A DNA stretch of 64,000 bases from a virus. Positions 19,584 through 61,392 of this stretch are shown here, in pieces. The notes below the pieces were generated by a model. That model saw only the letters and a list, made by a program, of their open reading frames with translations. It made no database searches and was not told the origin of the DNA. Position 1 is the first letter of the stretch, and every line of letters begins with the position of its first letter. The DNA lies in IMG/VR virus record IMGVR_UViG_3300044678_003030, positions 29,957 through 93,956 of that record. The stretch is one strand, 5' to 3'. Made by a program: the position numbers and the translations under genes.

Positions 19584-19596
19584 TTCACCGCGTGAA
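19584..19596. promoter_or_regulatory. TTCAC-N3-GTGAA site
   Basis: TTCACCGCGTGAA; contains a stop codon. Confidence 0.85.
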
Positions 19597-21104: not shown

Positions 21105-21117
21105 TTCACTCCGTGAA
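21105..21117. promoter_or_regulatory. TTCAC-N3-GTGAA site
   Basis: TTCACTCCGTGAA; intergenic. Confidence 0.85.
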
Positions 21118-32644: not shown

Positions 32645-32649
<5 letters not shown>

Positions 32650-32657
32650 GCCGTGAA
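32645..32657. promoter_or_regulatory. TTCAC-N3-GTGAA site
   Basis: TTCACGCCGTGAA; contains the possible GTG start of the 933-aa gene. Confidence 0.85.
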
Positions 32658-34435: not shown

Positions 34436-35397
34436 GCGGGGTTCCTTTGCGGAGAGTAGTCTAGGCGAGGATGGGAATCTCCCGTGGGCGCAGGGGCCTT
34501 GGACAGGAGCTTACGCCCACCATGAATGGCGGCGCCGGAGAGGAGTAGCGCGCTTACGGGGTTCTGCTTCACGGCATCGATGACAAAGCCTTTGAGATCT
34601 GCCGTCTTCGGGGGAAGCATCTGCTGCACGGGTTGCTGCACGGGTTGCTGCACGGGTTGCTGCACGGGTTGCTGCACGGGTTGCTGCGGGGCCTTGGGAT
34701 CGAACTTCGACCCAACCCACTGGCCGAGCTGCTGGATCGGTTGCTGAATCAGGACAGCTCCGGGGATACCGAGGCGCGAGGTCAACGGTGCTGCGGCGAG
34801 CCCGGCGACCATGCCACCGATGTTGCGCCCAAGGTTGGTTCGGCCCTGGCGCGCGATACGGGCGGCGTTCATTGCAGGCCCGAGCAGGCCCAAGGCCGTA
34901 CCGAGCGGGTTGCCCCGGGGGACGTAGAAGTCACGCGCCATTCCCAGGTAGCCCTTTTCCCGAAACTGACGGTCGAGGGCGAGCGGCGAGCCGAAGACGT
35001 TTTCCCTGAGCCCTTCGCCGACGACATGTCCGACGTTTTTGGCCCACCCGCCAAAGCCCTTGCCGTATCCTATCGCGGCAGGCATGAACGAGGCGCCGTT
35101 CGGTTGGATGACCTTGCCATCCATCTTGAAGGCGCGATTCTCCGGCATTCGCATCACGGGTTGATGTGCGCCGTAAGCCTGCATTCCGAGGATGTGCTTG
35201 CCAAAGAAGTTTGGCTGGAAGAATCCGTCTTGTGTGGACCCGGCGAGACGGTTGTGGAGGAACCCTGTTGGGGCCTGCACCTCGGGGGTGCTGTGGAACG
35301 GCAGTCCGTGCTCGTCGAATAGAAAGCGGCCAAACCCCTTGGCTTTTGCCACCACGTCGTCGACGACCGCTGCCTCTTTCACGCCGTGAAATGTCAT
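34432..35397 (-). CDS. Hypothetical protein with hydrophobic segments and QQPV repeats
   Basis: VKEAA, PKTAD; QQPV x5. Confidence 0.65.
   Translation of the reverse strand: MTFHGVKEAAVVDDVVAKAKGFGRFLFDEHGLPFHSTPEVQAPTGFLHNRLAGSTQDGFFQPNFFGKHILGMQAYGAHQPVMRMPENRAFKMDGKVIQPNGASFMPAAIGYGKGFGGWAKNVGHVVGEGLRENVFGSPLALDRQFREKGYLGMARDFYVPRGNPLGTALGLLGPAMNAARIARQGRTNLGRNIGGMVAGLAAAPLTSRLGIPGAVLIQQPIQQLGQWVGSKFDPKAPQQPVQQPVQQPVQQPVQQPVQQMLPPKTADLKGFVIDAVKQNPVSALLLSGAAIHGGRKLLSKAPAPTGDSHPRLDYSPQRNPA
34622..34687. repeat. 12-bp tandem repeat TGCTGCACGGGT x5.5
   Basis: Directly visible; encodes QQPV on the minus strand. Confidence 0.95.
35378..35390. promoter_or_regulatory. TTCAC-N3-GTGAA site
   Basis: TTCACGCCGTGAA. 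Confidence 0.85.
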
Positions 35398-37199
35398 CAG
35401 TAGGTACCGTCCAGCCCCTGCCGCAGTTCAGCGCCGAAAGCGTAGGCAGGCACAGGGTGAACCCCGTGGATGTTCGAGCCGAGGCCCTCAGAAGCCGCGC
35501 GCGAGATTGTACCCTTGAGACCTCGGTGTGCGAGGAGGGCGAGCCAGTCGTCATCCAGCAGCGGGTTTGTCGCCAGAGGCTTCATGACGTGTTCGATCTT
35601 CGGCATGCTACGGCTGACGAGTACCTCTCGGATGCCTTTACGGCTCAGGTCGTTGGCGACTGACGGCGTGATGCGGGTACCGAAGGTGTAATGGAACACC
35701 TCTTGGCCTAGCACCTTCCCGATGGCGTCAGCCAAGGGAACACGAGACACGTCTTTGGCGTAGGTCTCTCGGAGGCGGTTGTAGTTGACCACGTCGCCCT
35801 TGATCAGCTCCGGGTGCGATGGGTCTTGCTCGGAGATGCGGACGTGGTTCAGAACGCTCTTGGCGAGCAGTTCGAAGTGGCGCCTGTCCATCGACACGCC
35901 TTCGTTCTTGTAGACCCCAGCCAGCGAGTTCACAAGGTTCTCCCGAGACGCCCCAATTCCCTTGTAAAGCGTCAGCTTGGCAGGGTGCGGAACTCCGTCT
36001 GTCAGGGAATCACCAGCCTCCACGTGCTGGCCAACCCTCACTTTTACGGAGAGCTCGGGCTGTGAGTAGAGCTTCTCCTTGTCCACCCACACGAAGTGAC
36101 CGCCTTGAGCCGCAGGTTCGATCTTCGTCACGACACCGTCGGCCGGCGCGAGGGTTGCTTCGTGCGCGAACGCCTTGGGGATCTCCAGGAGCTGTCGCAC
36201 TCCCTTGAGCCCCTGTGGGTTCAAATTGCGCTCACGAATCGTGAGCACCGCGTGCTTGGACCCGAGGGCCATCTGCGTAAGCGGCTCGGCGAGCGCATGC
36301 GCAGTACGGATTCCGACGTTCGTCCCAATGGAGTGGAGCTTGCCCTTTTCGTCGAGCCCCATGCACATCTGGCAGACGCCCTGCGTTGCCGTACACGTCA
36401 TAGGGCTGCGTACGGTGAAGTCGACGTCGTTCGCAGCGCGGAACTGCTGAACGACGCGCGGAGTGATCAGGGTGTTGCGCGGGATCTTGTGCTCAGAGAT
36501 GGCAAGGTATCGATCGATCGCGTGTTGATCATCGACGTGCAGGAGGACGCCGTTTTGCGTGCCACAGTCATGCGCGGTGACGACCTTGGAAGATGTGTTG
36601 GCGATGAGGAGCTTTGCCATCTCACCGGGTTGAGACACAGAGACGACGGACGCGACGTTGTTGGCGCGTGCTTCAGGCGCGACTTCCCAGTACTCAGCCG
36701 GCGAGAGACCCTCGGCATAGGAGTGCCGCACAAGGAAGGAACCGATGCCACGCCCAGGCAGGTTTGACGCGAGAGGGGTCGCGACGATCTTCATGAGCTG
36801 AGACGGGTTGCCGCGTGCCCCCGAGAGCGCCATGTGAGTCATTGACCCGGGGTGGCTCTTGGTCTGCGCCAAGAGCTGCGTCTGTGCTCCGATGACGAGC
36901 TTCTCCCTCTTGGTCGGGTCCTTCTCCGCAGCCAGAGCGTCGGCGACGTTGTTCATGATCGCGTCGCGCTCTTTGTAGAGCGGCCTTACGTCAGACACGC
37001 CGACGGTGATGCCTTCCAAGGTCGCGATCTCGTCGCCGCGCTTCTTGAGCTTCTGGATCGTCTCGACGTACTTCTGCGGGTCGGACTTCGCGAGCCCTAC
37101 GACATGGTCATGAAGCTGCCGCTGGGTCATCGGCCCTGAGACCTTGTACCCATCGGGCAACACGTTGTTGACCAGCAGATGTCCAATTGTTGTGGGCAT
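35397..37199 (-). CDS. rpoC: Phage multisubunit RNA polymerase, beta' C-terminal part
   Basis: SGARGN, SYAEGLS..EYW, DCGT, RSPMTC..GVCQMC, VGI..A.ALAEPLTQMAL..H (trigger loop), QGL..V..LLE, RHFELL; start 37199 or 37220. Confidence 0.9.
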   Translation of the reverse strand: MPTTIGHLLVNNVLPDGYKVSGPMTQRQLHDHVVGLAKSDPQKYVETIQKLKKRGDEIATLEGITVGVSDVRPLYKERDAIMNNVADALAAEKDPTKREKLVIGAQTQLLAQTKSHPGSMTHMALSGARGNPSQLMKIVATPLASNLPGRGIGSFLVRHSYAEGLSPAEYWEVAPEARANNVASVVSVSQPGEMAKLLIANTSSKVVTAHDCGTQNGVLLHVDDQHAIDRYLAISEHKIPRNTLITPRVVQQFRAANDVDFTVRSPMTCTATQGVCQMCMGLDEKGKLHSIGTNVGIRTAHALAEPLTQMALGSKHAVLTIRERNLNPQGLKGVRQLLEIPKAFAHEATLAPADGVVTKIEPAAQGGHFVWVDKEKLYSQPELSVKVRVGQHVEAGDSLTDGVPHPAKLTLYKGIGASRENLVNSLAGVYKNEGVSMDRRHFELLAKSVLNHVRISEQDPSHPELIKGDVVNYNRLRETYAKDVSRVPLADAIGKVLGQEVFHYTFGTRITPSVANDLSRKGIREVLVSRSMPKIEHVMKPLATNPLLDDDWLALLAHRGLKGTISRAASEGLGSNIHGVHPVPAYAFGAELRQGLDGTY

Positions 37200-37209
37200 T
37201 GAATGTGTG

Positions 37210-38037
37210 CTACCGAACAAATGCGTTCAGTTGTTGTACGTAGGAGGATTGTGGACCCGGCAGTCTGAGCGAAGCATCAAGCCGTGGCAGCGCCATGGCT
37301 TCGTTGCCAGGGGTCAGCCCCCGCCAACGTCCCAACTGCTTGGTCGCGGAGTCGACCGCGACTTGACGCTTCGCTGCGCTGGCGAGTGCGGGGGCTGCGT
37401 TGACCGCTTGCGTGGCTTTCCCGATCCCGTCTGCCATGTAGTGTCGGAAGTTCAACAGCCGGTTTGTTGATACATCTGGGTTTTTTGCGCTGTTGAGAAT
37501 CTTGTTCTGAACCCAGGCGCTGCTGACGGCCGTCTTGGTTGTGCGCCCCTTCAGTTTGATGCCAAGCTGCTTGAGAAGCCCAGGAGCGACGACAGGGGCC
37601 GCAGCCTTGTTGAAGCCGAACACGCTTCGAAGTGACGCGAGCTTGGACGCCTCGACGTGCGAAGGTTCCTGATTCGGGATGTTGCTCGGAAGTGGTGCGG
37701 CGTACGCAAAGAGCTGCCGTGGTGTGTTCATCCCGCTGTAGACTCCGTAGCCGAGACCCGCGAGGCCGCCGATAACGCCGCCGAGGTCTTTGCCTGCCGG
37801 GTTGTCGAGGAGGTTGCCGAGGGCCATTCCCGCCCCAACGCCTGCGGGTGTTGCGAGCGCAGAGACTCGTGCGCCGCGCTTGAACTTCTCCCACGCCGTA
37901 GGGTTCGACATCATGACCGTAATCAGCCGTCGATCCTCCGGCGTGCCGGGTTGATCCTCGTACCCATGTGTTGACGCAACCCCGGGCGGCACGTCATTGG
38001 CGGTCTTCGTGAAGCCGAATACGATGTCGAGGTTCAT
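37210..38037 (-). CDS. K-x-A-containing protein with Gly-zipper module
   Basis: VFGFTKTA, SKLAS, VFGFNKAA, TKTA; probable start MNLDIV. Confidence 0.55.
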   Translation of the reverse strand: MNLDIVFGFTKTANDVPPGVASTHGYEDQPGTPEDRRLITVMMSNPTAWEKFKRGARVSALATPAGVGAGMALGNLLDNPAGKDLGGVIGGLAGLGYGVYSGMNTPRQLFAYAAPLPSNIPNQEPSHVEASKLASLRSVFGFNKAAAPVVAPGLLKQLGIKLKGRTTKTAVSSAWVQNKILNSAKNPDVSTNRLLNFRHYMADGIGKATQAVNAAPALASAAKRQVAVDSATKQLGRWRGLTPGNEAMALPRLDASLRLPGPQSSYVQQLNAFVR

Positions 38038-38041: not shown

Positions 38042-38989
38042 TCACCAGTCGAATGGTACAGGGATCGTGGCTTCGATCTCAGATCCACGGCTTCCGGCCT
38101 CGCCACGCCTCTTGCGCAACACCGACTTGGCCTTGCCGTTCTCGTCGAATCCGAAGTCTGTCTTCTGTAGCACGTCGATGAGCGGCTGGAGCGGGTCCGC
38201 TGCGCTGGTCTTCACCGCGTGAAAACCGAAGACTTCATCGAAGGAAGCCAGCTTCGCCGGAAGTTGCAGGGGTTGGGTACGCGCTTTGACTCCGAGCAGT
38301 GCCTTCGTCTCAGGGTCTAGCTCGGCTTCGACATTGTCCGCCGTGGACTTACTCCCCAGGATCTGTCCCTTGAGGTAGTAGCCGAGCCCAGGGATTCCTT
38401 CTGTGACGACGTGCGGCAGTCCTTGGATAAGAGCCTTGGTTTTGCCAATGCGCCGTGCCAGCATTGTCGCCGCTGGGTGGGCGTCTTCGTGCATCGTCCA
38501 GTTGTCGCCGTGCGAGTGGAGATGAAAGAGGTTGTCCGGGTGCCTGTACGTCCTGAACTCGTCCTGTCCCTTTTCAGGCACTGCAATCAGGACAGACTCG
38601 AACCCGAGGTTTTGGACGTCATCTCGCGAGATATGGCTCTTGGGGATGAGCACACGCTTGTGCCCGGTACCCGCGTAAACACCCTTGGTGCGAAGAAGAT
38701 TCGCGTAGTTGTCGAAGCGGGCCTGAACTTCAGGTGAAACATCGGCGAGCTTCTCGGGGTTCGCCCTAGCAGCGTCTTCGAACTTCCCCTTGAGGTCGTA
38801 GAACCCCGGCGAGGGGTCCACGTAGAACCCCCGTCGCTTCATCTTTCGGCGAGTCTCAACAGGCTGTCCCGCTGCGAGCTTGCAGACGAGGGTACTGGCT
38901 TCGTAGGGGTGCACGCTGGAAGGGTAATGCAGGTCAGCCGATTTCGACGGGGTCGTCGACTTTGACTTCGCCGCGACGCCATGCCGCAA
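38042..38989 (-). CDS. Hypothetical protein with His-rich motif
   Basis: FHLHSHGDNWTMHEDAHP; CKLAA, EKLAD, AKLAS, VFGFHAVKTSA; start uncertain. Confidence 0.55.
   Translation of the reverse strand: MRHGVAAKSKSTTPSKSADLHYPSSVHPYEASTLVCKLAAGQPVETRRKMKRRGFYVDPSPGFYDLKGKFEDAARANPEKLADVSPEVQARFDNYANLLRTKGVYAGTGHKRVLIPKSHISRDDVQNLGFESVLIAVPEKGQDEFRTYRHPDNLFHLHSHGDNWTMHEDAHPAATMLARRIGKTKALIQGLPHVVTEGIPGLGYYLKGQILGSKSTADNVEAELDPETKALLGVKARTQPLQLPAKLASFDEVFGFHAVKTSAADPLQPLIDVLQKTDFGFDENGKAKSVLRKRRGEAGSRGSEIEATIPVPFDW
38211..38223. promoter_or_regulatory. TTCAC-N3-GTGAA site
   Basis: TTCACCGCGTGAA. Confidence 0.85.
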
Positions 38990-41900
38990 CGGCTTCGGCC
39001 TCAGTCTTGAATCGACGCACAGGTTGCGCCTTGTTGGGCGTGTACTTGAGCGCGTGCGTGATCCCGATGATCGCCTCGTGCTGCGGAAACGCCATCAGCT
39101 TGTTGGGCGTCTGGTCGGAGAGCAGCAGGTGGGACATTGTCATGCGCTTGGCGTCGTCGATACCTGCGCGGGTGAGCGGTACGTGAACCTGAAGGGTGTC
39201 ACCGTCGTAGTCCAGGTTGAAGCCCTTCTCCACGAAGGGCGAAACCCTGATCGTCTTCCCCATCGTCGGCTGTGCGTACGCGGCGACGATGCCGAAGCGG
39301 TGGAGCGTCGGCGCGCGGTTCAGTAGCACAGGCCGCTCCTTGGTCTCTTCCACGAGGCATTGCTTCGCAGCAGGCGCCCGCTTGTCGACGAGCTCTCGTG
39401 CGTGAAGCGCGCTGTAGCCCTTGCGCACCAGTCGAGCGACCAGGAGCTTGTCGAACATCTGCCAGAGCATGTCTTCAGGCAGGCTCACAGCGTCCATGTG
39501 CAGGTTGCCGTCAGGCACCGCCGTACCACGGCCAGAGACGTCTTGCTGCCTCTTCATCAGCTTGCGCTGGAAGAAGCCACCCTTTGGTGACCCTTGCCCA
39601 GAGACCTGAGTCAAGAACCCCTTGACCTCCTCCTTCTGGAGCTTCTGGTCGTCGACGGTGTGGGTCCCGAACACGGCTCCAACGGCGTTGTAGAGCGCAG
39701 CCCGGTGCTTCGGAACGTCCGAGTCAAGGACGGCGTCCTTGACGGCGTCGTTCACGTCCATGAGATGCCCGTAGAGCTTGTTCGCATCGGCGACCATGAG
39801 CTGAGACGGGTTGTTCTTCTGCTGCGTGATCGGGCGGAAGATCGGCGGAATCACAGGCACCTTCGAGAGTACGTAGGCGTTCTCCGGTCGGAGCCCCTCG
39901 GCCTTGAGGGCGCGTAGGTACTTGATCTGCTTCACCGCGTTGTTCAAGTCGCTCGCCTTGAGCATCGGCAGCTTGCCCTCAAGCTCCTTGAGTTTGGCGT
40001 CGATGTTGATGCTCGCGAGCTCCTTCTTGATGTGCCCGCCGCCCTTCTCCTTGAGGAGGTCGGTGAACCGCTTCTCGGTCAGTCCGAGGAGGCGCCGAAT
40101 CGGCTCCTCAAACACCGGGTTGGGCATGGCCTCGTGAAGGTCCACGTGGGAGTAGAGCGTGCCCTCGGTGCCGCCCGTGAGGAAGGGGTCAAACAGCCCG
40201 CCCTTTTCGGGCTTGAGGTTCTTGGCGATGAGGGTCTTGCTGTTTTGCACAGCACCCGAAGAGCGCGCCATGATGTCAGCGTCCGTCGCCGGCAGCAGGC
40301 GGAACTTGGAGCCATCCTTGCGGACCTTGACTCCCGCGCCTTCGAGCATCGCCTGGAACTTGTTGAAAGCGAACGACGGACGGTTCGCCGGGAGGGGCTG
40401 TCCGAGCTGAATCGCGCGCCAGAACGCCTCGTTCTTCTGCCCTCGGATGTTGGCGGCGTCGGAGAGCATTCCGCGTGCGTTGTGCGCCAGCAGCGCATCC
40501 ACCTCCATCTTGCCGAGGCCCTTGGCGCCTTCTTCGCCACCCTGCTTGAGGGGCTGCTCGTTGGCGTCGTAAGGGCCGACACCGTGGCCCGCGAAGTTTG
40601 TGTCCGTCGACTTGAAGAGCTTGAAGATGAAGCTCCGACCCACGAACACACCTTGTCCGTCAGGGCCGACGATCTTTCGGCCGCTCACAGGGTCGTGTAC
40701 GTGTTCGTACCCGCTGACGTTGTGCTCCTTGGCGAGCCTCTCGACCCAGTCGATGGCGTTCTCGGACGACGCGTTGTCGAAGAAGATCGGCTTCTTGGTC
40801 TTCTCCGCGATCTTACCCGCCAGAGCCTCGTGGAGCTGCGCCGGGTTGATGCGGGAGACCACGCCCGCGCTCGTCATCAGTAGCTCAACAGGATTGCCTG
40901 CGGAGTCTTTGATCATCTCCTTGTCGGAGACGATCTTGGCGACCACGCCTTTCCCGCCGAAGCGGTTCGCCAGCTTGTCGCCGACCTGCATCTGCTCGTG
41001 GGTCTTCACGAGGACCGCGATCTGCGTCGGGGTACGCACGACGTCGACGACTTCTCCCTGCGTCCCATGCTCCCAGGACAGGGAGACTTCCTGCCAGGGC
41101 TTGGTGAGCGTCTTGGAGATCTTGCCGAGCATCAGGTCGGTGCCGGTGACCTGTGCCTTGGCGAGTCCTGCGACGAGGAGGTCGTGGTGGTTTACCTTCG
41201 CCCCCTTCTTCACGACGCCGGTTTCGTCGAGCTGCGCATACTGCGAGGGTTGGTACTTCGCGCCGAAGTAGACCTTGTGGCGCTTCGCCGAGAGCTCGAT
41301 CGTCGCGTTGAGCGGAAAGACCTCGCGGTACATGTGCTCGGAGGTCATTCGCTTGGCGAAGCCCTCGCTGATCACCACGGCGTCGTTGGAGTTCAGCCCG
41401 TAGTAGGGCATGTACGCGACACGCGCGTTGAGCCCTGACGCGAGCGTGCCGTTGCGCGTGAAGTTCGAGTCGCCGAGCATCTGCCCCATCTCGACGGTGT
41501 CGTTGGCCTTCACCGAGAGGGTGTGGTGCAGGCGCGTCTTCGAGGGGAAGGGGAAGTTGTCGCTGTAGGGGACCTTGATGAGCTCACGCTCGCGACGGGC
41601 CGCTTCTTTCACCGAGTGAACCTCGGCCGGGCTCGGGTTTTCCCACGGGGCGTAGCCGTGCATAAACCACTCACCGAGCGAACCCGTATTGAGATCATCA
41701 AGGCTGTCATCATGCGTAAGCTGCGGGGGCAGGACACCGTACACCACATCAGCGGCTAGCCGGGGGAGACGCTTGCCGGCAGAGGCCAACGCACCATCCG
41801 CGCCAGGGTAATTGAACATGTACCGAACGTCGCGCCCGGCCAGCCCTGCGTTCATTGCGGCGTGGTTTGCCCAGATGCGCCCGTAGCTCGCCGTCTTCGA

Positions 41901-44006
41901 CCCCTTCCGGTAGTCCTCGATCTCTTCCTTGAGATCATCCCAGGAGGCGTACTCGACGCGGTTGACACAGCGAGTCTTCGGCTTGCGCTCGATCTGACGC
42001 AGGACCGTGTCGACCTTCTCCATGGGGACGCCGACGATGAACTTCACATCGGCCGGCTTCCACTCACCATCTTCGTTCTGTTCGTCGGTGTCGACGGAGA
42101 CCAGGGCGCCGTCAGGGTCGTCACCGACCCAGAAGTCCAGGGAGTCGCCATCAGGGCCTTCGAAGCCCGGGAGGTAGCCATAGTCGCAGGGGAAGGGATG
42201 ACCCCAGGGCTTCTCGCCCTTCTCGATCTCGATTTCGAAGGTGAAGGGCCCGTGCTTCTTGGACTGCGCCACCGGGCGGTCCGCGAGCTTCTCTTCCTCT
42301 GCGGCCCTCTTGGCGCGGCGCGGCTCAATGTAGATGAACCCGTGTTCGATCTTGCGCACAATGCCGCTCACGGGCGCGAGCGGCACAACCATGCGGCCGT
42401 AGAAGTCCTCATAGGACCCCCCGTCCGGGTGTTTGACCTGCACCAAGGGCGCCTCCCGCTGAAGCAGTGGCAGACCCTGTGTCTGCATCTTGGAGCCCAT
42501 GATCGCACGGTTCCCCTGGATCGAGTGCAGGAGAGGGATCAGGCTCGTGGCCGGCGAGTAGGTGTGCGAGACGTGGAGCTGCTGATAGTCAACGTCCTTG
42601 GCGTCGACCTTCTGGACCTGCCCTTGGTGAAGCGCGTCTACACGCCCCTGCATGCGCTGATGCGGGAAGGCGATGACTTTGCTCATCATGTCCGAGGCGT
42701 TCACGAACTCGGTCTTGTTGGTCCGTGCGTTCCTGAGCGGTGTGTAGAGGTTGCCCTCTTCGTCTCGGTGAGCGGCGATCGTGGCGCGGATGTCGACGCC
42801 TGCGTGGCCGCTCTCTGGCGTGCGGATCGGGTCGAGGATGCCGAAGTGCGTCGCGTGCGTGAGGCGTGTTGAAAAAGGGATCGCGCGCTCACTGGGAATG
42901 CCGCCCTCTCCGAGCGCTGTGACCTTCACCGAGTGATCGAGGAGCTCAAGCGGGTTGATTCCCGTGGGCACCGCTGAAAGGGCGCTCGACGTGATGAACT
43001 GGCGCAGCGGCTGGGAGAAAGGAGCTGGCTTGAGAGAGCCTCGGATCTCCTGCTTGCCGTTGAGCGCCATGCGAGCCTTCGGAGCCCATTCGCGCGCGGT
43101 GAGCTTCACGCGCTCTGCGAGAAAGTCGTCCACGCTGTGGAATGTCTTGAACGCGAGCGAGTCGGCGTCGTCCTCCGGGTCTTGACCCCTGTGCACGCGG
43201 AGCAGCTTTTGCGCTGCGGCGAGGAGCGCAGGCGGGGTGACCTTGTCGTGTGACGCCCCGAGCGTGATGCGCGTGACGTGCGCGTCCATCACGGTGTTTC
43301 CGAAGCGCTTGATGACCTCTGCGAGCTTCTCGGTGTGGCTCGCCTTGGCATTGAACACGGACTCGTGCGCGAGCTTTTGGTAGAGCTTCGCGATCGAGAT
43401 CTCCTCCTTGCCGCCGAAGAGCGCCTTGTTGGCGTCAGCGATGGGAGCGCCGAGCTCGCGCGCGATGACCTCATGGGTGACCCCGAGGGCGCGTAGCACA
43501 GGGTAGAGCGGGATGTTCGTCGAGTCGTAGACGAGGTAGAACGCTGACTTCGCCGGGTCGATCGTGACGTTGAAGTTCGCACCCTTGGAGAGGTTGAACG
43601 TCGTGTGCAGCTCCCCGTTCGCGCTCCGCTGCGTGTACGCGCCAGGACGGCGACGCAGCATGTTCGCGATCTGGTACTCGTTGCCGTCCATCAGGATGGT
43701 GTGGCGTTCGGAGAACCACGGGAGGTGCGTGAGGGTGAAGTTGCGCGCCTCGTTGACGATCTTCCCGTCGCCGTCTTTCAGGACGAGCGTCCCCTTCACG
43801 GGCTCAGAGAGCGAGTCGCCGGTGAGGAGCGCGTGCTTCTGCTCCTCAGGGGAGAAGTCTCGCGCGAGCACCTTGATGTCCTTGACCTCCAGGGTGCGAC
43901 CCTTGAGATCGACGGGGAATGCGCGTTCGAGCTCCCTGACGACTTTCCCGCGCACATTTTCGCGCAGCGAGTGGGCGTCGGTGAGTACAGGTGACAGGAC
44001 AGGCAT
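38934..44006 (-). CDS. rpoB: Phage multisubunit RNA polymerase, beta fused to beta' N-terminal part, with PPase-like insertion
   Basis: beta: HFGILDPIRTPESG, NRAIMGSKMQTQ, NSNDAVVIS, GDKLANRFGGKGVV, SRIN, GLGKMEVDAL; beta': KPEKGGLF, VPVIPPIFRP, LLNRAPTLHR, catalytic FNLDYDGD. Confidence 0.92.
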   Translation of the reverse strand: MPVLSPVLTDAHSLRENVRGKVVRELERAFPVDLKGRTLEVKDIKVLARDFSPEEQKHALLTGDSLSEPVKGTLVLKDGDGKIVNEARNFTLTHLPWFSERHTILMDGNEYQIANMLRRRPGAYTQRSANGELHTTFNLSKGANFNVTIDPAKSAFYLVYDSTNIPLYPVLRALGVTHEVIARELGAPIADANKALFGGKEEISIAKLYQKLAHESVFNAKASHTEKLAEVIKRFGNTVMDAHVTRITLGASHDKVTPPALLAAAQKLLRVHRGQDPEDDADSLAFKTFHSVDDFLAERVKLTAREWAPKARMALNGKQEIRGSLKPAPFSQPLRQFITSSALSAVPTGINPLELLDHSVKVTALGEGGIPSERAIPFSTRLTHATHFGILDPIRTPESGHAGVDIRATIAAHRDEEGNLYTPLRNARTNKTEFVNASDMMSKVIAFPHQRMQGRVDALHQGQVQKVDAKDVDYQQLHVSHTYSPATSLIPLLHSIQGNRAIMGSKMQTQGLPLLQREAPLVQVKHPDGGSYEDFYGRMVVPLAPVSGIVRKIEHGFIYIEPRRAKRAAEEEKLADRPVAQSKKHGPFTFEIEIEKGEKPWGHPFPCDYGYLPGFEGPDGDSLDFWVGDDPDGALVSVDTDEQNEDGEWKPADVKFIVGVPMEKVDTVLRQIERKPKTRCVNRVEYASWDDLKEEIEDYRKGSKTASYGRIWANHAAMNAGLAGRDVRYMFNYPGADGALASAGKRLPRLAADVVYGVLPPQLTHDDSLDDLNTGSLGEWFMHGYAPWENPSPAEVHSVKEAARRERELIKVPYSDNFPFPSKTRLHHTLSVKANDTVEMGQMLGDSNFTRNGTLASGLNARVAYMPYYGLNSNDAVVISEGFAKRMTSEHMYREVFPLNATIELSAKRHKVYFGAKYQPSQYAQLDETGVVKKGAKVNHHDLLVAGLAKAQVTGTDLMLGKISKTLTKPWQEVSLSWEHGTQGEVVDVVRTPTQIAVLVKTHEQMQVGDKLANRFGGKGVVAKIVSDKEMIKDSAGNPVELLMTSAGVVSRINPAQLHEALAGKIAEKTKKPIFFDNASSENAIDWVERLAKEHNVSGYEHVHDPVSGRKIVGPDGQGVFVGRSFIFKLFKSTDTNFAGHGVGPYDANEQPLKQGGEEGAKGLGKMEVDALLAHNARGMLSDAANIRGQKNEAFWRAIQLGQPLPANRPSFAFNKFQAMLEGAGVKVRKDGSKFRLLPATDADIMARSSGAVQNSKTLIAKNLKPEKGGLFDPFLTGGTEGTLYSHVDLHEAMPNPVFEEPIRRLLGLTEKRFTDLLKEKGGGHIKKELASINIDAKLKELEGKLPMLKASDLNNAVKQIKYLRALKAEGLRPENAYVLSKVPVIPPIFRPITQQKNNPSQLMVADANKLYGHLMDVNDAVKDAVLDSDVPKHRAALYNAVGAVFGTHTVDDQKLQKEEVKGFLTQVSGQGSPKGGFFQRKLMKRQQDVSGRGTAVPDGNLHMDAVSLPEDMLWQMFDKLLVARLVRKGYSALHARELVDKRAPAAKQCLVEETKERPVLLNRAPTLHRFGIVAAYAQPTMGKTIRVSPFVEKGFNLDYDGDTLQVHVPLTRAGIDDAKRMTMSHLLLSDQTPNKLMAFPQHEAIIGITHALKYTPNKAQPVRRFKTEAEAVAAWRRGEVKVDDPVEIG
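41608..41620. promoter_or_regulatory. TTCAC-N3-GTGAA site
   Basis: TTCACCGAGTGAA; at the edge of the RNAP insertion. Confidence 0.85.
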
Positions 44007-44313: not shown

Positions 44314-44326
44314 TTCACGGGGTGAA
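44314..44326. promoter_or_regulatory. TTCAC-N3-GTGAA site
   Basis: TTCACGGGGTGAA; intergenic. Confidence 0.85.
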
Positions 44327-46547: not shown

Positions 46548-46560
46548 TTCACTCCGTGAA
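46548..46560. promoter_or_regulatory. TTCAC-N3-GTGAA site
   Basis: TTCACTCCGTGAA; at the portal/helicase divergence. Confidence 0.85.
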
Positions 46561-49213: not shown

Positions 49214-49298
49214 AAATCGACATGTTCCTGGTAAAAGCACTTGCCTTTCCTCTGTGGCTGCTTTACAGATCGAGCCCTCGCAAGGTAGACCTTCCTTC

Positions 49299-49616
49299 AT
49301 GACGCGACGACAGACACGGACGGCCGGCTTGTTGCACATCGAACGCATGGAAGCCGTTCGTGGGAACCTCGCCGCCAAGCGCAAGGCGGGCGGCGGCGAG
49401 CACTTCGCCGATGACCATCTCTTTCGAAAGCTCTCAACTGTGCTGTTTACGGCGTACGAAACTTCTGGCCTTTCACCGCGTGAATGTGCCATGGAGTTCT
49501 ACGGCGCCTTCGCTCACCTCTTGAACGGCAAGCCGGTAGAAACGCTACCGGCGCCGTCTCTGGAGCCCGAGGTCCACGCCGAGCTCAAGGCGTTGGCCGC
49601 TACGTCCAATGACTGA
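49299..49616 (+). CDS. Hypothetical protein
   Basis: ORF directly upstream of the ParB-like gene; start uncertain. Confidence 0.5.
   Translation: MTRRQTRTAGLLHIERMEAVRGNLAAKRKAGGGEHFADDHLFRKLSTVLFTAYETSGLSPRECAMEFYGAFAHLLNGKPVETLPAPSLEPEVHAELKALAATSND
49472..49484. promoter_or_regulatory. TTCAC-N3-GTGAA site
   Basis: TTCACCGCGTGAA; about 145 bp upstream of parB. Confidence 0.85.
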
Positions 49617-49628
49617 GGAGAACTGATC

Positions 49629-50828
49629 ATGCCCAAGAACAAGACCGCCAAGACCGCCAAGACCGAGACCGCGCCCGAGACCGCGCCCGAGACCGCCCCC
49701 CAGGTCGACGAGCGTGAGCGCGTCGGCGCCGAGATCGCCGCGCAGATGGCGGCGCTCGCCGAGCGCTACGACTTCGACGTCCCCTCCAAGACCAAGGAGG
49801 AGTACGGCGAGGTCCCCGTCGAGGAGCTCCTCAACATCGAGGGCCTCGACTCGCGCGCCAGCATGACCCCGCTGGACAAGACGTTCGTCCAGTCCCTCAA
49901 GAAGGACAACGGGGCGCCCCACCTGATCGAACCCGTCATCGCCACGTGGGCCAAGGACAAGCAGCAGAACAACAAGATCGTGCGGCTGCTCGTCGCCGGG
50001 CGCCGCCGCGTCGCCGGGTTCACGGAGAACGGGTTCAAGGTGATCCCGTGCATCTCGCGTCCGTACAACCTCAAGGACGTCCTGATCGACGCCGGCATCG
50101 AGAACCTCGACCGCAAGGGCATGAGCGGGTGGGACCTCGCGGTCTACTTCCAGCGGCTCAAGGCGGCGGGGCTCAACCAGACCGAGATCGCCGCGCGCCG
50201 TGGCGTGTCCAGCGCCACTGTCTCGCAGACCATCTCCCTCCTGACCCTGGACCACCGGGTCCAGACCCTCATGAAGAAGGGGAAGTTCGGGGCGGGCGCC
50301 GTGACCATCGGTCGCGAGCTGGCGAAGATCGAGGACCTCGACAAGCAGTACGAGGTCGCTGAGCAGGTGATCGCCGATCCCGAGCACATCTGGACGGCCT
50401 CTGATGTCCAGACGTTCGTCAAGGACATGAACGACCGGGCCGCTGCCGCCGCCAAGAAGAAGGCGGAGAAGGAGAAGGCCAAGAAGCAGGCGGCGAAGGA
50501 CGCCAAGGCGCGCGGCGAGGCGCCCGACGGCGATGAGGAGGAGGAAGAGGAGGAGGGGCCGTCGTACGCCTACGACCCCGAGGAGTTCGTCTGCCTGGAG
50601 GTCACTCCCCTTCACCTTCGCCTGGAGGACGTGAACGCGGCGGCGGTCAAGATCAAGGACGCGGCCCCGGACATCATCACGCGGGCCAAGGCGCTCAAGG
50701 AGAGCGACAACGAGCTCCTCAAGTACCTGGAGCTCCAGGGCCACATCAAGGGCCTGAAGGAGGCAGCCGGGATCGCGAAGCTGCCGAAGGCGATCCTCAC
50801 TGCCGTCGAGGCCGCCAAGACGGAGTGA
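49629..50828 (+). CDS. parB: ParB/Spo0J/KorB-like DNA-binding protein
   Basis: LIEPVI, LVAGRRRV (GxxR box), IENLDRKGMS, HTH GLNQTEIAARRGVSSATVSQTISLL; strong RBS and codon bias. Confidence 0.88.
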   Translation: MPKNKTAKTAKTETAPETAPETAPQVDERERVGAEIAAQMAALAERYDFDVPSKTKEEYGEVPVEELLNIEGLDSRASMTPLDKTFVQSLKKDNGAPHLIEPVIATWAKDKQQNNKIVRLLVAGRRRVAGFTENGFKVIPCISRPYNLKDVLIDAGIENLDRKGMSGWDLAVYFQRLKAAGLNQTEIAARRGVSSATVSQTISLLTLDHRVQTLMKKGKFGAGAVTIGRELAKIEDLDKQYEVAEQVIADPEHIWTASDVQTFVKDMNDRAAAAAKKKAEKEKAKKQAAKDAKARGEAPDGDEEEEEEEGPSYAYDPEEFVCLEVTPLHLRLEDVNAAAVKIKDAAPDIITRAKALKESDNELLKYLELQGHIKGLKEAAGIAKLPKAILTAVEAAKTE

Positions 50829-50856
50829 CCCAGTACCGCACCGCCGGGTGATGGCG

Positions 50857-50894
50857 ACGGCGCCTCTCGTTCGCGAGAGGCGCCGTTTCTATTT
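50857..50894 (+). terminator. Intrinsic terminator between convergent genes
   Basis: 13-bp stem ACGGCGCCTCTCG/CGAGAGGCGCCGT, TTCG loop, then TTCTATTT. Confidence 0.8.
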
Positions 50895-50897: not shown

Positions 50898-51746
50898 CTA
50901 GAGCAACTCGCTCACGTCTGTGACACCGAGCGTGTCCAGGTACACCTTGAGCTTCCCCAGCCCTGCGTCTCGGAGCGCGGCGAGTTCGAGCGTCGTATAG
51001 ACCGACCCATCGATCGCGAAGAGCCTGAGAGCGAGCTCGTCAAGGTCGTGCTCCCCGTCTCCGATAAATCCGTAGATGTAGGAGAGGACGAGGCGTTCAC
51101 GGCGTGAAAGTCCGGCCTTGACCATGTGCCGAACGAGCGGGGCCACGTCTGACGGGCTGGCGTCGCTAGCCAGTGTCTCAGGGTCGACCGAGGCGAACGT
51201 AGGCTCCTCGAACGAGTAGTCACGCCGCTGCCCGAGGGCCATCTCAGCCTCTTCGACTCGGCGTTGTCTTCGGTTGGCCTTGCGGACGTGGTTCGGGACG
51301 TGGACCAGTTGGTCGCGGTTGAGGTACTCCTGGATTCTGACGTTGATCCAGTAGTCGGCGTAGGTGAGGAACCGCGTCCCGTGTGCTACGTCGAAGCGGT
51401 ATACGGCATCCATCAGGCCGCAGTTGCCCGCGCTGACGAGCTCCCTGAGGAGCTGTTCGTCGCGCGTGTATTTTCGCGCCACCTTGATCACGAAGCGGAG
51501 GTACCCCCTCGGGATCGTCTGCTCCAGCCGCGTGACCTTAGCTTTCCAGACCTTGAGGTCGCTCTCGATCCGGCGCCGCTTCTCTCCTGCTGGCAGCTTG
51601 TTGAGCTTCTTCTCGGCGCTCTCGACGCTTTGACGCGCGACCAACAGGTTGGTGAAGTTCTCTCTTTCTTGCGCGGCGGTAGGCTGTGTCTCACGCCCGA
51701 CCTCCAAGAAGTAGACGGACGCGATGCGGTCCTCACGTTGACTCAC
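50898..51746 (-). CDS. Sigma-70 family RNA polymerase sigma factor
   Basis: LRFVIKVARKY, ELVSAGNCGLMDAVYRFD..GTRFLTYADYWI (region 2), LSRRERLVL (region 4); GGAGG RBS. Confidence 0.9.
   Translation of the reverse strand: MSQREDRIASVYFLEVGRETQPTAAQERENFTNLLVARQSVESAEKKLNKLPAGEKRRRIESDLKVWKAKVTRLEQTIPRGYLRFVIKVARKYTRDEQLLRELVSAGNCGLMDAVYRFDVAHGTRFLTYADYWINVRIQEYLNRDQLVHVPNHVRKANRRQRRVEEAEMALGQRRDYSFEEPTFASVDPETLASDASPSDVAPLVRHMVKAGLSRRERLVLSYIYGFIGDGEHDLDELALRLFAIDGSVYTTLELAALRDAGLGKLKVYLDTLGVTDVSELL
51096..51108. promoter_or_regulatory. TTCAC-N3-GTGAA site
   Basis: TTCACGGCGTGAA. Confidence 0.85.
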
Positions 51747-51854: not shown

Positions 51855-53084
51855 ATGGCGAAGAACAACAACACCAGCAGCACCAGCAAGCCCGCTACGA
51901 CGCAGCAGGCGCCGATCGAAGCGTCGGAGGAGTCCGTCAGCGAGGCCGTCTCGGGCGAGCTCGTCACCGCCCCGCCTCCGGCTCCTGTGCAGGAGACGGG
52001 GCTCTCGCGCCCCTCCGATCGCGAGGACGATGGGGTGACCCTGCTCCACCTCGTGCAACTGCTGCCGCACAAGGCGCACCGGCTGAAGAAGTTCGTGCGC
52101 GCCTCCGAGGACGACTTCGGCAACGCCTACTCGTCGCTCGACCCGGCGTCGCAGGACGCGGTCGACGAGCTCCTCGCCCGCATGTCCGGCGACAAGATGG
52201 GCATCGAGGACGACAGCCGTGGCTTCCGCCCGATGACCCTCAAGATCCGCCAGGGGTCGAGCAACGACGCGAACTGTCCCGAACTCTGCGACGTCGGCGG
52301 CATCTACACGTCCGACGGGCGCATCCTCACCGCGCCCTCGGAGCTGCTCTCCAAGAAGGGTGGCGTCCCGATGTTCCAGCGCGCCATCGTCCTCTCCACG
52401 TGGCACGGGCGCGTCATGTTCGCGCCCCGCATCAACGGCACCACCACGCAGCTCCCCGAGTTCGGGGACGCGTCGACGAACATCCCCTACTGTCAATCGA
52501 TGGATCGGCAGAAGGGTCGGCCCGTGAAGTCGGTTCCGAACGTCGGCTCCTGCAAGGGATGCCCCTACGAGCCCTGGAAGGTGCGCGGGGAGCCGAACCT
52601 CTGCACCAATCAGGTGACGGCGGTCATCCTCCTCGTCCGCACGGACGCCGACGGGAAGCACGTCGTGTTCGACGGCCTGTATCAGGTCGACTTCTCGAAG
52701 ACCTCGGAGCCTGCCGGGCAGAGCCTCCACGATGCGGTGTCGAAGGGCAAGTACGCCTGGGAGACCTTCTTCGAGCTCGGCACCTCGAAGAAGGCCGGCA
52801 AGCCCGGTCAGGGCGACTACTTCATCTACGAGACCAAGATGGTGATGGATGGCACCGGTCGGCCCCTCAAGACGCCGGAGTCGTCGCTCGCCATGATCGA
52901 GGTCTTCTGGAAGAAGCTCATGGCGGAGTACTTCTACCCCCGCCTCGCCTTCACCTACTCCCAGGTCACGGACCGTTCCGGTGGCGCCACCGGACCGACC
53001 AGCGACATGAGCGACCTGGAGCGCAATGCGGCGAACGCGGCGAACCGCGCGCCGGGCGCTGACATGCGCGCCGACAACGTCTGA
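51855..53084 (+). CDS. Hypothetical protein, possibly ssDNA-binding/recombination
   Basis: Strong codon bias; between sigma and nuclease genes; CxxCP motif; disordered termini. Confidence 0.5.
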   Translation: MAKNNNTSSTSKPATTQQAPIEASEESVSEAVSGELVTAPPPAPVQETGLSRPSDREDDGVTLLHLVQLLPHKAHRLKKFVRASEDDFGNAYSSLDPASQDAVDELLARMSGDKMGIEDDSRGFRPMTLKIRQGSSNDANCPELCDVGGIYTSDGRILTAPSELLSKKGGVPMFQRAIVLSTWHGRVMFAPRINGTTTQLPEFGDASTNIPYCQSMDRQKGRPVKSVPNVGSCKGCPYEPWKVRGEPNLCTNQVTAVILLVRTDADGKHVVFDGLYQVDFSKTSEPAGQSLHDAVSKGKYAWETFFELGTSKKAGKPGQGDYFIYETKMVMDGTGRPLKTPESSLAMIEVFWKKLMAEYFYPRLAFTYSQVTDRSGGATGPTSDMSDLERNAANAANRAPGADMRADNV

Positions 53085-53167: not shown

Positions 53168-53180
53168 TTCACGCCGTGAA
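53168..53180. promoter_or_regulatory. TTCAC-N3-GTGAA site
   Basis: TTCACGCCGTGAA. Confidence 0.85.
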
Positions 53181-54280: not shown

Positions 54281-57200
54281 ATGGCGAAGAAGCCAGCAAC
54301 CAAAGGTAACAACTCACAAACGCACAAGCAGGGCAACGGCCTGTTTTCTCGGCTTGGTGCCGCGAAGATCAGGCAGGTTGTTGAGGCGCTCATTCCCTCG
54401 CTTGACCTGGACAAGCCCCGTTCTTTCATCTTCCGTGACGGCGACGTCCTTGAGACCAACTGCATCCTTCGAGACCACAAGGATGACACGCCCTCGTGCA
54501 AGATCGATTGCCGACGGGGCACGATCCACTGCTACGGCGCGGGCTGTGGCTATCACAGCTCAAACCTCTTGCAGTGGCTGCAAGACGCGACGGGGCTCTC
54601 CTTCAAGGAGATCGCGACACAGGTCCACACCGTCACGGGGGTGCGCGCTGTCAATGACAAGGTGACCAAAGAGCTGGAGGAGCTCGATGATCACCAGCAG
54701 ATGGTCACGCTCGCGATGCGGGTGTTCAATGAGCACCTCGCGCGGTGCATCAAGCCACCTACGGGAGAGCAGCCGTACGCGAGGGACTACTCTGCGCCGT
54801 TCATGTCTGTCATCAAGCACACGCTTGATTGGCTCTTTGTCGAGAGAGGGCGCGACCCGAAGCACGTCCTCTCTTTGCCCTACGGCATCCTCCCTTCGCA
54901 GGAGATGGCTGTGCGTTTCGCCAAGGACATCCTTGACCGGATGGCTGAGGGTTACGGCACGGCGCAGCGTGCGGCCAAGCTCTCACCAGAGCGCCGTACG
55001 AAGATCGAGGCGCTCTTCGAAGCGATGATGGAGGGGGTCGACACGCGGTGGATTCACTGCGTGACATTTCACACCGGCTACGGCCTTACGACGCCTGGGT
55101 GCATCCGACTCCGTCTGCCGCGTGATGACAAGACTGACGGGACGGACACGCTCCCCGGCTCGAAGTTTTCGCCCGATGACCCGATCGGTTACTTCGGCCT
55201 CTACCTACCTCAGTACCGGACCTTCTCCCCGCAAGAGGTCAAGGACCTGCATGTCATCGTCGTTGAAGGCGAGAACGACACGCTGGCCTACGTCGAGAAG
55301 CTACTCGACAGCGGGAAGGTCGGTGTACGCGTTGTGGCGTCCATCGGCAAGCACAACGGGCTAGACCCCCTCGTCGACGCGGGCATCCAGCGCGCCTACC
55401 TCTTTGGTGACGAGCCTTCGGAGGACTACGGCAAGGGCGAAGACTGGCTTCGTCACATGCTCGCGAGCTCAGAGCGCATCGACGCCCGCCCGTTTGTGGG
55501 CTGGCAGGAACTGCGTGAGGGGTCGCCCAAAGACCCTGATGACGCGATCCGTGCTCACGGCTTTGACAAGGTCTACGCGCTTACGGCGGGCGCCAACGCG
55601 CGGTACGCCTCGGCGGAAGCCTGGGCGCTGGATCGGCTCGTGGACAACACCGCTGGCCTCGGGGCCAGCGATATGCGCGAGAAGCTCCGGTGGGGCATTG
55701 AGTTTGGCAAGTGCGTACGAAATCATGCCTCCCTCTCGGTTTATCTTGAGCAGGCTGGCAGGGTCATCGGGATTCCTCCAGCGGCTCTTCGGCGTGAGCT
55801 CGTCAAGGTCGACAATACCGAGGAGGGCTACGTCGCGCGGCTCGCAGACGTGTTGCTTCACGAGTTTCACCGGACATGCCGAAACGACACCGACGGCAAG
55901 GGTGGCGGCTCAATCGAGCTCTTCCACCGTACAACACAGACGCGACTCGCGTTCTACCTCACCGACGGCAAGGGGATGCTCGCGCAGCTCTCGGCCGTGT
56001 TCGGTGACATGTGGCGCTTCTTCAAGGACCAAGTCGGTCTGCCGCCACAGTATGAAGACCCCAACCTCGACGGGGTACCTACGTTCGACTCGCTCCCGGA
56101 CAAGCTCCGCAACCTGACGGGCTATCTGGAGATGGCGATGCACACGGTGGCCCAGGGCATCCCTTCACGCAGTGAATGTGAGGAGATTGGCCAGGGCTGC
56201 CGGTTCATGGACGACCCGCAGCGCCCTGGGACCAAGGCGTTCTACGTGCTCAACGGCTTCCACGTCTACAAGGGCGTGGTCCGCAGCGAGCCGGAGGCGT
56301 CCGTTGATTGGGCCAAGCTCGCAGGCCCCTCCGACGGGAAGTACATCTTCCTCGTCGACAAGGAGAAGACGTGGTGCGAGGAGATCCGCACCGTAGAAGA
56401 CCTCATCGCTGGCAACGCTGTGACGCGGGAAGACCTCCATGAAGCGTTGCGCGGCGCACAGGGCATCTTCCAGCGATTCTGGAGGCTCAAGCACGGGGAG
56501 ACTGACGCGCAGTTCCTCGCCTACCACCTTGCGGCTCTTGCGACCGGCTACGCCTACCGGACCAAGAGCGTCGTCCACTTCCTCGGAGACACCAACGCCG
56601 GAAAGTCGACGCTCCTCTCTTTCTTCGGCGGCACGCAGGTCCCCCGCTTTCGCCTCGTGGAAGCTGCTGACTACCGGCCGAACTACACAGCGGCGTTCAT
56701 CTGTCAGCACTGGGATCGTGTCACTACGGCGATGCTCCTCGACGAGTTCGAAGCGGAGCAGACGTCGAAGACTTCGCACAAGGGGATCCAGGTCGAAAAC
56801 ATCAGCGAGCTGATCCGACAGATCGCGTCTGAAGGCGGCACGCCAGCGAGCCGTGGCGGCAGCGACGGGCGCACGCGCACCTACCACCTTCACACGTTCG
56901 TGATGCTCACGAGCATGCTCAAGGCGACGCTTCCGCAGGACAACAATCGGCGCATGGCGATTGAGATCTACCGTAACGACGGCATCGCGCCGGAGGTCGG
57001 CGTGTTCGACGAAACGCCGCCTGAGCAGCTTCACCGCTGGCGACGCATGCTCTCGATCGGGCTCTTCAAGTTCGTGCCTGAGCTCATTCGACACTACGAG
57101 GCAGTTCGCACGAGCATCGCCCGCGTCAAGCGGGTCGACTTCAGCGTTCCTGCGCGGTTCACCGACAACCTCGTGCCGGCCGTCGCCGCCATGTCCTTCT

Positions 57201-61114: not shown

Positions 61115-61392
61115 TTGTTCACCGCGTGAAAGTTCTCCATGACGGGGCCTTCTACGTGGGAGATTGGCCGGGCGCTGAGCCTGCTTTGAGTCTCCTTGAC
61201 GTCATCAAGGACGCCAAGAGACACTTCGCGAGATCGTGCAAGCTCGACTCGATCGACGTTTCGATCGACGCGACCCTTGTCACACAGGACCTGAATGAAG
61301 ACCATGCCGAAGCCGAACAACAAGAAGCCCTGGTCGTGGCTGGACACCGAGACCACGGGTCTCGACCCGACCATCTGCCCGAGGTCAGGTGA
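61111..61392 (+). CDS. Possible small hypothetical protein
   Basis: GTG overlaps polA stop; overlaps next gene by about 90 nt. Confidence 0.35.
   Translation: MIVHRVKVLHDGAFYVGDWPGAEPALSLLDVIKDAKRHFARSCKLDSIDVSIDATLVTQDLNEDHAEAEQQEALVVAGHRDHGSRPDHLPEVR
61118..61130. promoter_or_regulatory. TTCAC-N3-GTGAA site
   Basis: TTCACCGCGTGAA. Confidence 0.85.

Follow-up and report, generated by a model that had tools for sequence, protein, structure and literature searches.

Introduction

Clamps of the ParB family, which are switched by cytidine triphosphate (CTP), are known to act in the partition of chromosomes and plasmids (ParB), in nucleoid occlusion (Noc) and in the silencing of plasmid genes (KorB). 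Sliding of the clamp has been shown for KorB and ParB (PMC11790492), and orphan ParBs on mobile elements are a known class (PMC12704722). Here we analyse a parB-family gene and a dispersed palindrome in a 64,000-nucleotide stretch of viral DNA (the window), which comprises bases 29957-93956 of the 93,956-bp IMG/VR contig IMGVR_UViG_3300044678_003030 (G000; G+C 63%); the completeness of the contig by CheckV is 53%. Positions are those of the window unless stated otherwise. An original prediction, made from the letters of the window, had named the ParB protein as the best candidate reader of the palindrome. Our analysis leads us to think that the phage ParB probably does read these evenly dispersed palindromes, as clamp-loading sites across the genome.

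The palindrome array

The pattern TTCAC-N3-GTGAA occurs 25 times in the window, where 0.02 copies are expected and none of 100 shuffles contained as many. Extending the count to the whole 94-kb contig gave 40 copies, and the reversed-pattern control gave 0. The gaps between copies average 2,302 bp with a coefficient of variation (CV) of 0.40, compared with a minimum of 0.596 among 10,000 random placements. The consensus of the site, tTTCAC-(g)S(c)-GTGAAa, covers about 15 bp and includes a weak T before the core and a weak A after it. Its spacer is not a free N3 but follows B-S-V, the middle base being G or C in 94% of copies. No sequence information was found outside these 15 bp within 50 bp on either side of the motif, thus indicating that it has no promoter partner. 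As a sequence for binding tests, the motif site is tTTCACGGCGTGAAa.

Of the 40 copies, 22 lie well inside genes and the other 18 touch gene ends or fall in intergenic DNA. Within the window, the pattern count places copies, to which no strand is assigned, at 3290-3302, 4639-4651, 5268-5280, 7802-7814, 11459-11471, 13656-13668, 15953-15965, 19584-19596, 21105-21117, 22770-22782, 23283-23295, 25420-25432, 32645-32657, 35378-35390, 38211-38223, 44314-44326, 56164-56176 and 61118-61130. Further copies include one deep inside the RNA polymerase gene (41608-41620), where one copy is found 2.4 kb into the gene, and one that fills the 13-bp gap between a divergent 576-aa gene and the gene of an SNF2 helicase (46548-46560). 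The copy TTCACCGCGTGAA at 49472-49484 lies 145 bp before the ATG of parB, inside a small gene, and its position is kept in close relatives. Copies inside genes use reading frames 1 and 2, frame 0 being excluded by an in-frame TGA, and the use of two frames argues for selection at the level of the DNA. The array is a stand-alone DNA-level signal, more even than chance, and not a promoter, a terminator or a by-product of coding.

Each of the simpler origins of such a repeat was considered and rejected. A sigma-type promoter would need a -10 partner, which is absent, as is any information beyond the 15 bp, and many copies lie deep inside long genes. An RNA hairpin or terminator does not agree with a stem of 5 bp, with relatives that keep a single arm, or with an orientation that is independent of transcription. 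A coding artefact is incompatible with the two reading frames in use, the third being barred only by the in-frame TGA, and a mobile element with the lack of conservation in the flanks of the copies. Full-text searches found no publication on this motif or on an evenly spaced array of ParB sites in a phage.

The ParB protein and its gene

The parB-family gene (49629-50828, + strand) encodes a protein of 399 aa, in which residues 1-27 form a low-complexity tail, residues ~58-165 an N-domain of the ParB/Srx fold, residues ~166-270 a helix-turn-helix (HTH) DNA-binding domain, residues 271-324 a charged linker and residues 325-399 a helical C-domain. The original prediction of ParB N-domain boxes and an HTH was borne out. 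Pfam HTH_ParB (PF17762) matches residues 173-266 above the cut-off (expectation value, E, 6.6e-11), four ParB-like PHROG families match with E between 1e-10 and 4e-11, and a profile of ten close homologues matches Thermus thermophilus Spo0J, Noc, Bacillus subtilis ParB and Myxococcus xanthus ParB (5e-12 to 1e-8); the same profile matches KorB with an E of 6.5e-4. The GRRR box (G124-R127; 49998-50009, + strand) corresponds to the GERR nucleotide-binding box of ParB with Glu replaced by Arg, and the ENLDR box (E158-R162; 50100-50114, + strand) corresponds to ENLQR. Both align with the GERR and ENLQR boxes of the solved chains 1vz0, 6sdk, 7bnr and 7ng0, and in the profile alignment AGRRR stands opposite AGERR and IENLDR opposite VENLQR. 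Residues R76, G124, R127 and N159 are invariant in a 60-sequence alignment, in which R162 is nearly so.

The two helices of the HTH span residues 184-191 and 195-206 (50178-50246, + strand) and include residue 196, which varies with the type of motif. This also holds for residue 233, at the end of the R229-K233 segment of the helix that follows the HTH (50313-50327, + strand); R229 itself is invariant in the family and aligns with the GR of the GHGRTLL segment of B. subtilis ParB. An AlphaFold model based on the 60-sequence alignment has a mean predicted local distance difference test (pLDDT) score of 90.5. The best Foldseek matches of this model are nucleotide-bound chains of ParB, Noc and KorB over the N-domain and HTH, with CTP- or cytidine diphosphate-bound ParB chains at 5e-11 and sulfiredoxin further down the list. 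Target-normalised template modelling (TM) scores are 0.69 for KorB (8qa9), 0.68 for the Caulobacter ParB-parS complex (6t1f) and 0.67 for Spo0J, and the model superposes on the DNA-binding domains of the KorB-operator and ParB-parS complexes. Residues 325-399 form a confidently modelled helical domain, the candidate dimerisation domain, that is conserved in the subfamily and has no Pfam match.

In the ParBs that have been studied, CTP hydrolysis depends on the Glu of the GERR box. This residue is not conserved across the family, in which the position is occupied by R, Q, K, C, M, G, W, F, Y, H or E, and it is the residue altered in the crystallised M. xanthus ParB mutant E93A (title of 7o0n). 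We expect the phage ParB to bind nucleotide, and its turnover may be altered.

The lack of a parA next to the gene, which the original prediction had reported for the window, extends to a wider search: no AAA_31 match above the cut-off was found in the 94-kb contig or in five complete relatives. The N-terminal peptide by which ParBs stimulate ParA is defined as (L/F/I)G(K/R)G(L/F/I) (PMC12704722). This peptide is absent from 54 of 54 sequences of the phage ParB subfamily and is confined to the six lowest-scoring and most distant members of the alignment, which we took as canonical ParBs. With ParA missing from the contig and the complete relatives, and the ParA-binding peptide missing from the protein, the phage ParB is to be classed as an orphan; its sequence and predicted fold identify it as a true member of the ParB family with canonical architecture and no ParA. 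A type of phage ParB that activates 5mYOX enzymes lacks a DNA-binding domain (PMC13229309) and was rejected as an identity for this protein, which has one.

The same prediction had described a strong ribosome-binding site, a codon bias, a terminator of its own and a motif copy about 145 bp upstream, and all of these stand. A Shine-Dalgarno sequence, GAGGAG (49615-49620, + strand), stands 8 nt ahead of the ATG and partly coincides with the stop codon of the small gene upstream. The G+C content at third codon positions (GC3) of parB, 0.95, is the second highest among 86 genes delimited by a crude GC-frame caller and points to very high expression. An intrinsic terminator hairpin (50856-50887, + strand; 14-bp stem, TTCG loop, T tail, -39 kcal/mol, z-score -4.3) separates parB from the convergent sigma-factor gene. 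One further suggestion did not survive, namely that KTA repeats in the N-terminus match a head-protease motif and that the protein may thus be packaged. Although KTAKTAKT is present at residues 5-12, packaging is unsupported because the repeat is not conserved in close homologues (the 87%-identical one reads KNKTPKSKPE), because the tail is modelled with low confidence, and because ParB is absent from Arash, the one relative for which a virion proteome is available.

The 415 bp that precede parB are not intergenic. They contain an open reading frame of 120 aa (49254-49616, + strand; the likely start at 49299 gives 105 aa) that includes the motif copy at 49472; in 21 loci, the DNA immediately before parB gives a translated match to it. 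Its product runs from a basic N-terminus through a conserved core, ExF..Y.HL.EG.P...LP, to an acidic tail, and gave no Pfam, PHROG or Atlas match. The small gene appears to be translationally coupled to parB, and its product may be a partner of ParB in the way that KorA and TrbA are partners of KorB (PMC13768133).

The motif in related phages

This phage is a member of a family whose RNA polymerase is fused and whose genomes measure 155-195 kb. Searches of viral, metagenome and genome collections with the single ParB protein and with an alignment of close homologues led to two loci, and it was an alignment of the fused beta-beta' RNA polymerase that opened the family, giving 79 related IMG/VR loci, several of them from complete genomes of 172-194 kb (relatives are cited below by our L and G numbers). 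Ten close ParB homologues exist in public data, and the contigs of two of them were compared. With a ParB that is 87% identical, L002 apparently has its sites at the same places, with the same spacing and near-identical flanks. G001, whose ParB is 56% identical, carries 23 copies in 43.8 kb; 4 of the 8 mappable gene-internal sites are conserved in position and the other 4 have turned over. Positions conserved in G001 are those of the copies at 27385-27397, 29743-29755, 51096-51108 (inside the sigma-factor gene) and 53168-53180. Where ParB identity falls to 28%, in G002, a single TTCAC palindrome is found, with 50 copies of TTTAC-N3-GT instead.

Throughout the family the enriched element always has a 5-N3-5 layout with an AC...GT core, and the arms differ by lineage. 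TTCAC arms are found in this phage, L015/16, L019, L069, L074, L084 and others, and TTTAC arms, often as TTTACG-S-CGTAAA, in L020, L021, L023, L043, L062, L070, L078 and others. The element is GTACG-N-CGTAC in L018, L057 and L073, ATACG-N-CGTAT in L053 and L088/89, and TTTCC-N3-GGAAA in L024. The last of these loci (IMGVR_UViG_3300020577_005993) has 5 copies in 17.7 kb, where 0.009 are expected. Its arms resemble the half-site of the Noc-binding site (NBS), which suggests that the family has explored parS-like and NBS-like arms within one 5-N3-5 frame. Another locus, L028 (IMGVR_UViG_3300015606_001684), has half-site elements of both the TTTAC (15) and the TTCAC (10) type, with 4 full palindromes of each, and its ParB has A196 and N233; from these sequences L028 may be an intermediate or have relaxed specificity.

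Even spacing is likewise a property of relatives. The complete genome G003 contains cTTTAC-gSc-GTAmr 123 times, at 5-10 per 10 kb over all 172 kb, with a gap CV of 0.61, and 0 of 5,000 random placements were as even; the spacing in G017 and G001 is also more even than random (p 2e-4 and 3e-3). The G003 sites have one strong and one degenerate arm, and only 8 of the 123 are fully palindromic. Relative to genes, 34 of them have the same orientation, 39 the opposite one and 50 are intergenic, with no single switch point along the genome. This lack of relation to gene direction, together with the lack of a switch point, excludes a directional signal for transcription or replication, and unequal arms in free orientation fit a dimeric binder. 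A copy of the motif also precedes parB at a fixed distance, which is ~160 bp in the clade of this phage and ~375 bp in L019 and the clades with TTTAC or ATAC arms, irrespective of the motif variant that is present.

Association of ParB with the motif

No motif-bearing relative without a ParB, the counter-example that the original prediction had named, came to light. ParB is syntenic in 24 of the 24 motif-bearing loci with enough flanking sequence, encoded on the other strand from the polymerase and 5-7 kb upstream of it, and it is present in 20 of 21 large records, including 8 of the 8 that are at least 90% complete. Arrays were found in six genomes or large fragments with a full-length subfamily ParB (G000, G001, G002, G003, G015 and G017). 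Classification of motifs from 25-kb loci under-calls weak arrays, and G015 was positive on a scan of the whole genome. No array was found in the two ParB-less genomes that were scanned, Arash (complete) and G023 (89% complete), nor in genome scans of G008 and G021, whose ParB is only distantly similar.

A covariation of HTH residues with the motif had been put forward as a check, and the result is a modest positive signal. Motif type follows the clades of the ParB tree, in which TTTAC types stand on either side of the midpoint root and no fewer than 3 changes are required for TTCAC. In 33 columns, 70% or more of the TTTAC-type ParBs share one residue, and in only 3 of these do all three TTCAC lineages have another. 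Residue 196, at the start of the recognition helix, changes from G to A or S, and residue 233, one helical turn past the invariant R229, changes from R to K, S or A (and is P, H or E with other motif types); the third column is residue 370 in the C-domain. The four residues that set the preference of Caulobacter ParB for parS or NBS lie in the recognition helix and the helices that follow it (PMC7383237). Columns 196 and 233 thus fall where specificity residues are expected, which is suggestive, an exact residue correspondence to Caulobacter ParB not being established. The covariation as a whole is likewise suggestive and was found post hoc.

Two relatives have unusual ParB genes. A ParB match in G006 (the record of L043; complete, 179 kb) at 69778-70680 contains one in-frame TAG, which may reflect an error of sequencing, a pseudogene or a recoded stop. 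In G013 (the record of L063), at 166898-168109, the ParB profile matches two stretches within a single 449-aa frame, a pattern that points to an insertion in the DNA-binding region; this genome contains TTCAC-N3-GT sites that are not palindromic.

Weighing the candidate readers

The choice of ParB as the best candidate reader is supported by its co-occurrence with the motif and by the contig, in which no other dimeric sequence-specific binder was recognised; among the 68 contig proteins of up to 450 aa, the only other sequence-specific DNA-binding domain found by Pfam is that of the sigma factor. This choice is unproven, and several observations weigh against it. In the TTTAC lineages, a strong arm is paired with a weak one at most sites, which is unusual for a classical parS. 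The four array-negative genomes are also the most distant relatives, and both co-occurrence and covariation are confounded by phylogeny. Two ParB clades of the TTCAC type have rather different recognition helices, SATVSQT and DAMVSQY. Within the protein, the match to Pfam ParB_N (PF02195; 15.8 bits, residues 97-160) is below the threshold, and nucleotide hydrolysis may differ from that of known ParBs because the Glu of the GERR box is Arg. Lastly, most contig proteins belong to no known family and about half of the genome is missing, so that a reader could have gone unrecognised.

Such a reader could be the small protein encoded upstream of parB, or a protein from the unsequenced half, with ParB acting elsewhere, non-specifically or as a partner. 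We regard this as unlikely. It would be in keeping with the recognition of only 8 Pfam families among the 68 smaller contig proteins, with the 53% of the genome in hand, and with the conservation, beside parB in 21 loci, of an apparently coupled small gene of unknown fold; KorA, the small partner of KorB, itself binds DNA (PMC11790492). The small protein, however, has no detectable DNA-binding domain, and the layout and arms of the palindrome match sites of the ParB/KorB type. That two residues of the ParB DNA-binding domain track the switch in motif, and that ParB is missing from no motif-bearing locus, also speaks for ParB itself. A host ParB, Noc or other nucleoid protein, recruited or soaked up by the phage, would explain why TTCAC/GTGAA arms occur within the widespread chromosomal parS half-site (PMC7022226), and Pseudomonas aeruginosa ParB does bind many half-parS sites (PMC10419367). 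Yet the arms vary from one related phage to another in step with the clades of the phage-encoded ParB, and the extra 3 bp between them misfit the geometry of canonical parS, which makes a host reader extremely unlikely.

The motif could instead be the target of an enzyme, whether a nicking or cutting endonuclease, a DNA-modifying enzyme, or a phage primase acting at regular priming sites. An even spacing of 1.4-3.3 kb lies within the range of lagging-strand fragments, and the phage encodes both a large protein with a weak DnaG-type zinc-ribbon match (below the Pfam cut-off) and an HNH endonuclease. Against this, the asymmetric variant in G003 shows no pattern of strand or direction (the 34, 39 and 50 sites given above), nicking of a palindrome on both strands would break the chromosome, and neither a thousand-fold enrichment nor even spacing is expected for modification or restriction sites. 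Known primase recognition sites are 3-5 nt long, which counts against a primase in particular. All in all, we judge an enzyme target to be very unlikely.

A proposed mechanism

A mechanism is proposed in which a dimer of the phage ParB would dock on the ~15-bp quasi-palindromes tTTCAC-(g)S(c)-GTGAAa. Each site, if the analogy with KorB, Noc and ParB holds, would be a loading point for nucleotide-closed clamps. If these slide for about a kilobase, a spacing of 1.4-3.3 kb would leave the whole phage chromosome occupied. We infer that the likely purpose lies in organising, marking or silencing phage DNA and not in its partition, and possible effects include compaction or compartmentation of the DNA, a global timing of transcription by the phage polymerase, and the marking of self DNA. 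An abundant structural or global role is favoured over control of one promoter at a time because of the very high codon bias of parB, the indifference of the sites to gene boundaries and the position of the gene, which sits between the polymerase, helicase and sigma-factor genes and the replication genes. A regulatory component is likely as well, because some copies lie exactly at gene starts or between divergent genes, as at 46548.

A more far-reaching version is possible, although we hold it to be doubtful: in these virulent-type phages of 155-195 kb, which have a virion RNA polymerase of their own, an orphan ParB clamp, perhaps impaired in hydrolysis, would use the evenly spaced loading sites to coat or condense the entire chromosome as a kind of phage chromatin or ParB condensate, and co-evolution of protein and site would let each lineage mark only its own DNA. 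If true, this would keep phage DNA apart, protect it or set the timing of its expression globally. How specificity evolves can also be followed in this family as a natural experiment, with five arm variants, a fixed 5-N3-5 layout and two candidate residues, and it may help to explain why orphan ParBs are common on mobile elements (PMC12704722).

The phage family and neighbouring genes

A tblastn search of cultured phages with ParB gave no match. Salmonella phage Arash and three Vibrio phages are the closest relatives in culture, with an RNA polymerase identity of 34%; the virion proteins of Arash include the polymerase, the sigma factor and a helicase (PMC10585845). In the window, the RNA polymerase is encoded on the - strand by 38934-44006 and 35397-37220, the former fusing beta to the N-terminal part of beta' (catalytic NLDYDGD) and the latter being a separate gene for the beta' C-terminal part. 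Gene order in G002 is as here: SNF2 helicase, small genes, ParB, sigma factor, exonuclease, primase and DNA polymerase. Adjoining the sigma-factor gene is a gene of 409 aa (51855-53084, + strand) whose GC3 of 0.92 points to very high expression; its product matches nothing in Pfam or PHROG and shares 47% identity with its G001 counterpart. At the start of the contig, outside the window, is the HNH endonuclease gene (G000:C1:3-464; Pfam HNH, 2e-9).

Comparison with known systems

The phage ParB shares with chromosomal ParBs the order of domains, the GxRR and ENxxR boxes and an HTH followed by a conserved Arg (PMC7022226, PMC7333895). It differs from them in the absence of ParA and of the LG[KR]GL peptide, in the replacement of the GERR Glu by Arg, and in the 3 extra bp between the arms of its candidate site. 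The arms TTCAC/GTGAA do occur within the half-site of parS, TGTTNCACGTGAAACA (PMC7022226), and the original description of the motif as parS half-sites with a 3-bp insertion therefore remains apt for the TTCAC lineage, this lineage only; it fails for relatives with TTTAC, GTAC, ATAC or TTTCC arms, and a 13-bp odd palindrome like the KorB operator, with evolving arms, is the better description. Unlike a clustered parS centromere, the phage sites are spread evenly over the genome, as in the 172-kb G003 with its 5-10 sites per 10 kb. The many dispersed half-parS sites occupied by P. aeruginosa ParB resemble the one-strong-arm sites of the TTTAC lineages, but this occupancy is a side activity of a partition ParB, with uneven sites and no obviously selected array (PMC10419367).

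Noc of Bacillus is a ParB paralogue without ParA that has a CTP switch and many scattered palindromic sites (PMC7383237, PMC8429893). It is among the best matches of the phage protein in sequence and structure, and the TTTCC-N3-GGAAA arms of L024 resemble NBS half-sites. Noc, however, is a host protein that uses an N-terminal helix to tether DNA to the membrane, and no such helix is evident in the phage ParB, whose residues 1-27 are a low-complexity tail of low confidence; NBS is a 16-bp even palindrome, and the density of the phage sites is far higher than that of Noc's. Among phages, the stoperators of cluster A mycobacteriophages such as L5 are 13-bp elements in 20-30 copies, also found in transcribed regions, which are bound by one phage protein. 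Stoperators lack symmetry, follow the direction of transcription and are recognised by a temperate phage's immunity repressor, whereas the sites described here are palindromic or free in orientation and their candidate reader is a ParB.

The closest parallel is KorB with its operator OB. RK2 has ~12 OB sites in ~60 kb, placed relative to promoters, and KorB represses promoters with KorA or TrbA as a partner that locks the clamp. KorB of this IncP-1 plasmid shares the ParB-family fold with the phage protein (TM score of 0.69 to 8qa9; PMC11790492, PMC13768133, PMC5577506), and OB, TTTAGC(S)GCTAAA, is a 13-bp odd palindrome with an S centre, the same layout as TTTACG(S)CGTAAA in the phage relatives. 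In both cases the sites are dispersed over the replicon, some OB sites being far from promoters, and many 13-bp palindromic copies lie on the replicon that encodes the protein. The CTP clamp of KorB slides at least 1.5 kb, a distance similar to the spacing of the phage sites, and just as korA lies beside the KorB gene, a small conserved gene without similarity to KorA lies beside phage parB. Unlike in RK2, about 40 sites per 94 kb are evenly spaced and mostly inside genes, the replicon is a tailed phage of 155-195 kb without any sign of plasmid maintenance, there is no IncC/ParA partner or ParA-binding peptide, and sequence similarity to KorB is weak (6.5e-4). The ParB fold and the orphan class were already known, and what is new here is a KorB/Noc-like ParB with dispersed candidate sites that tile a phage genome. 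If it does load clamps at these sites, the ParB switch would gain a fourth use, the occupancy of an entire viral chromosome.

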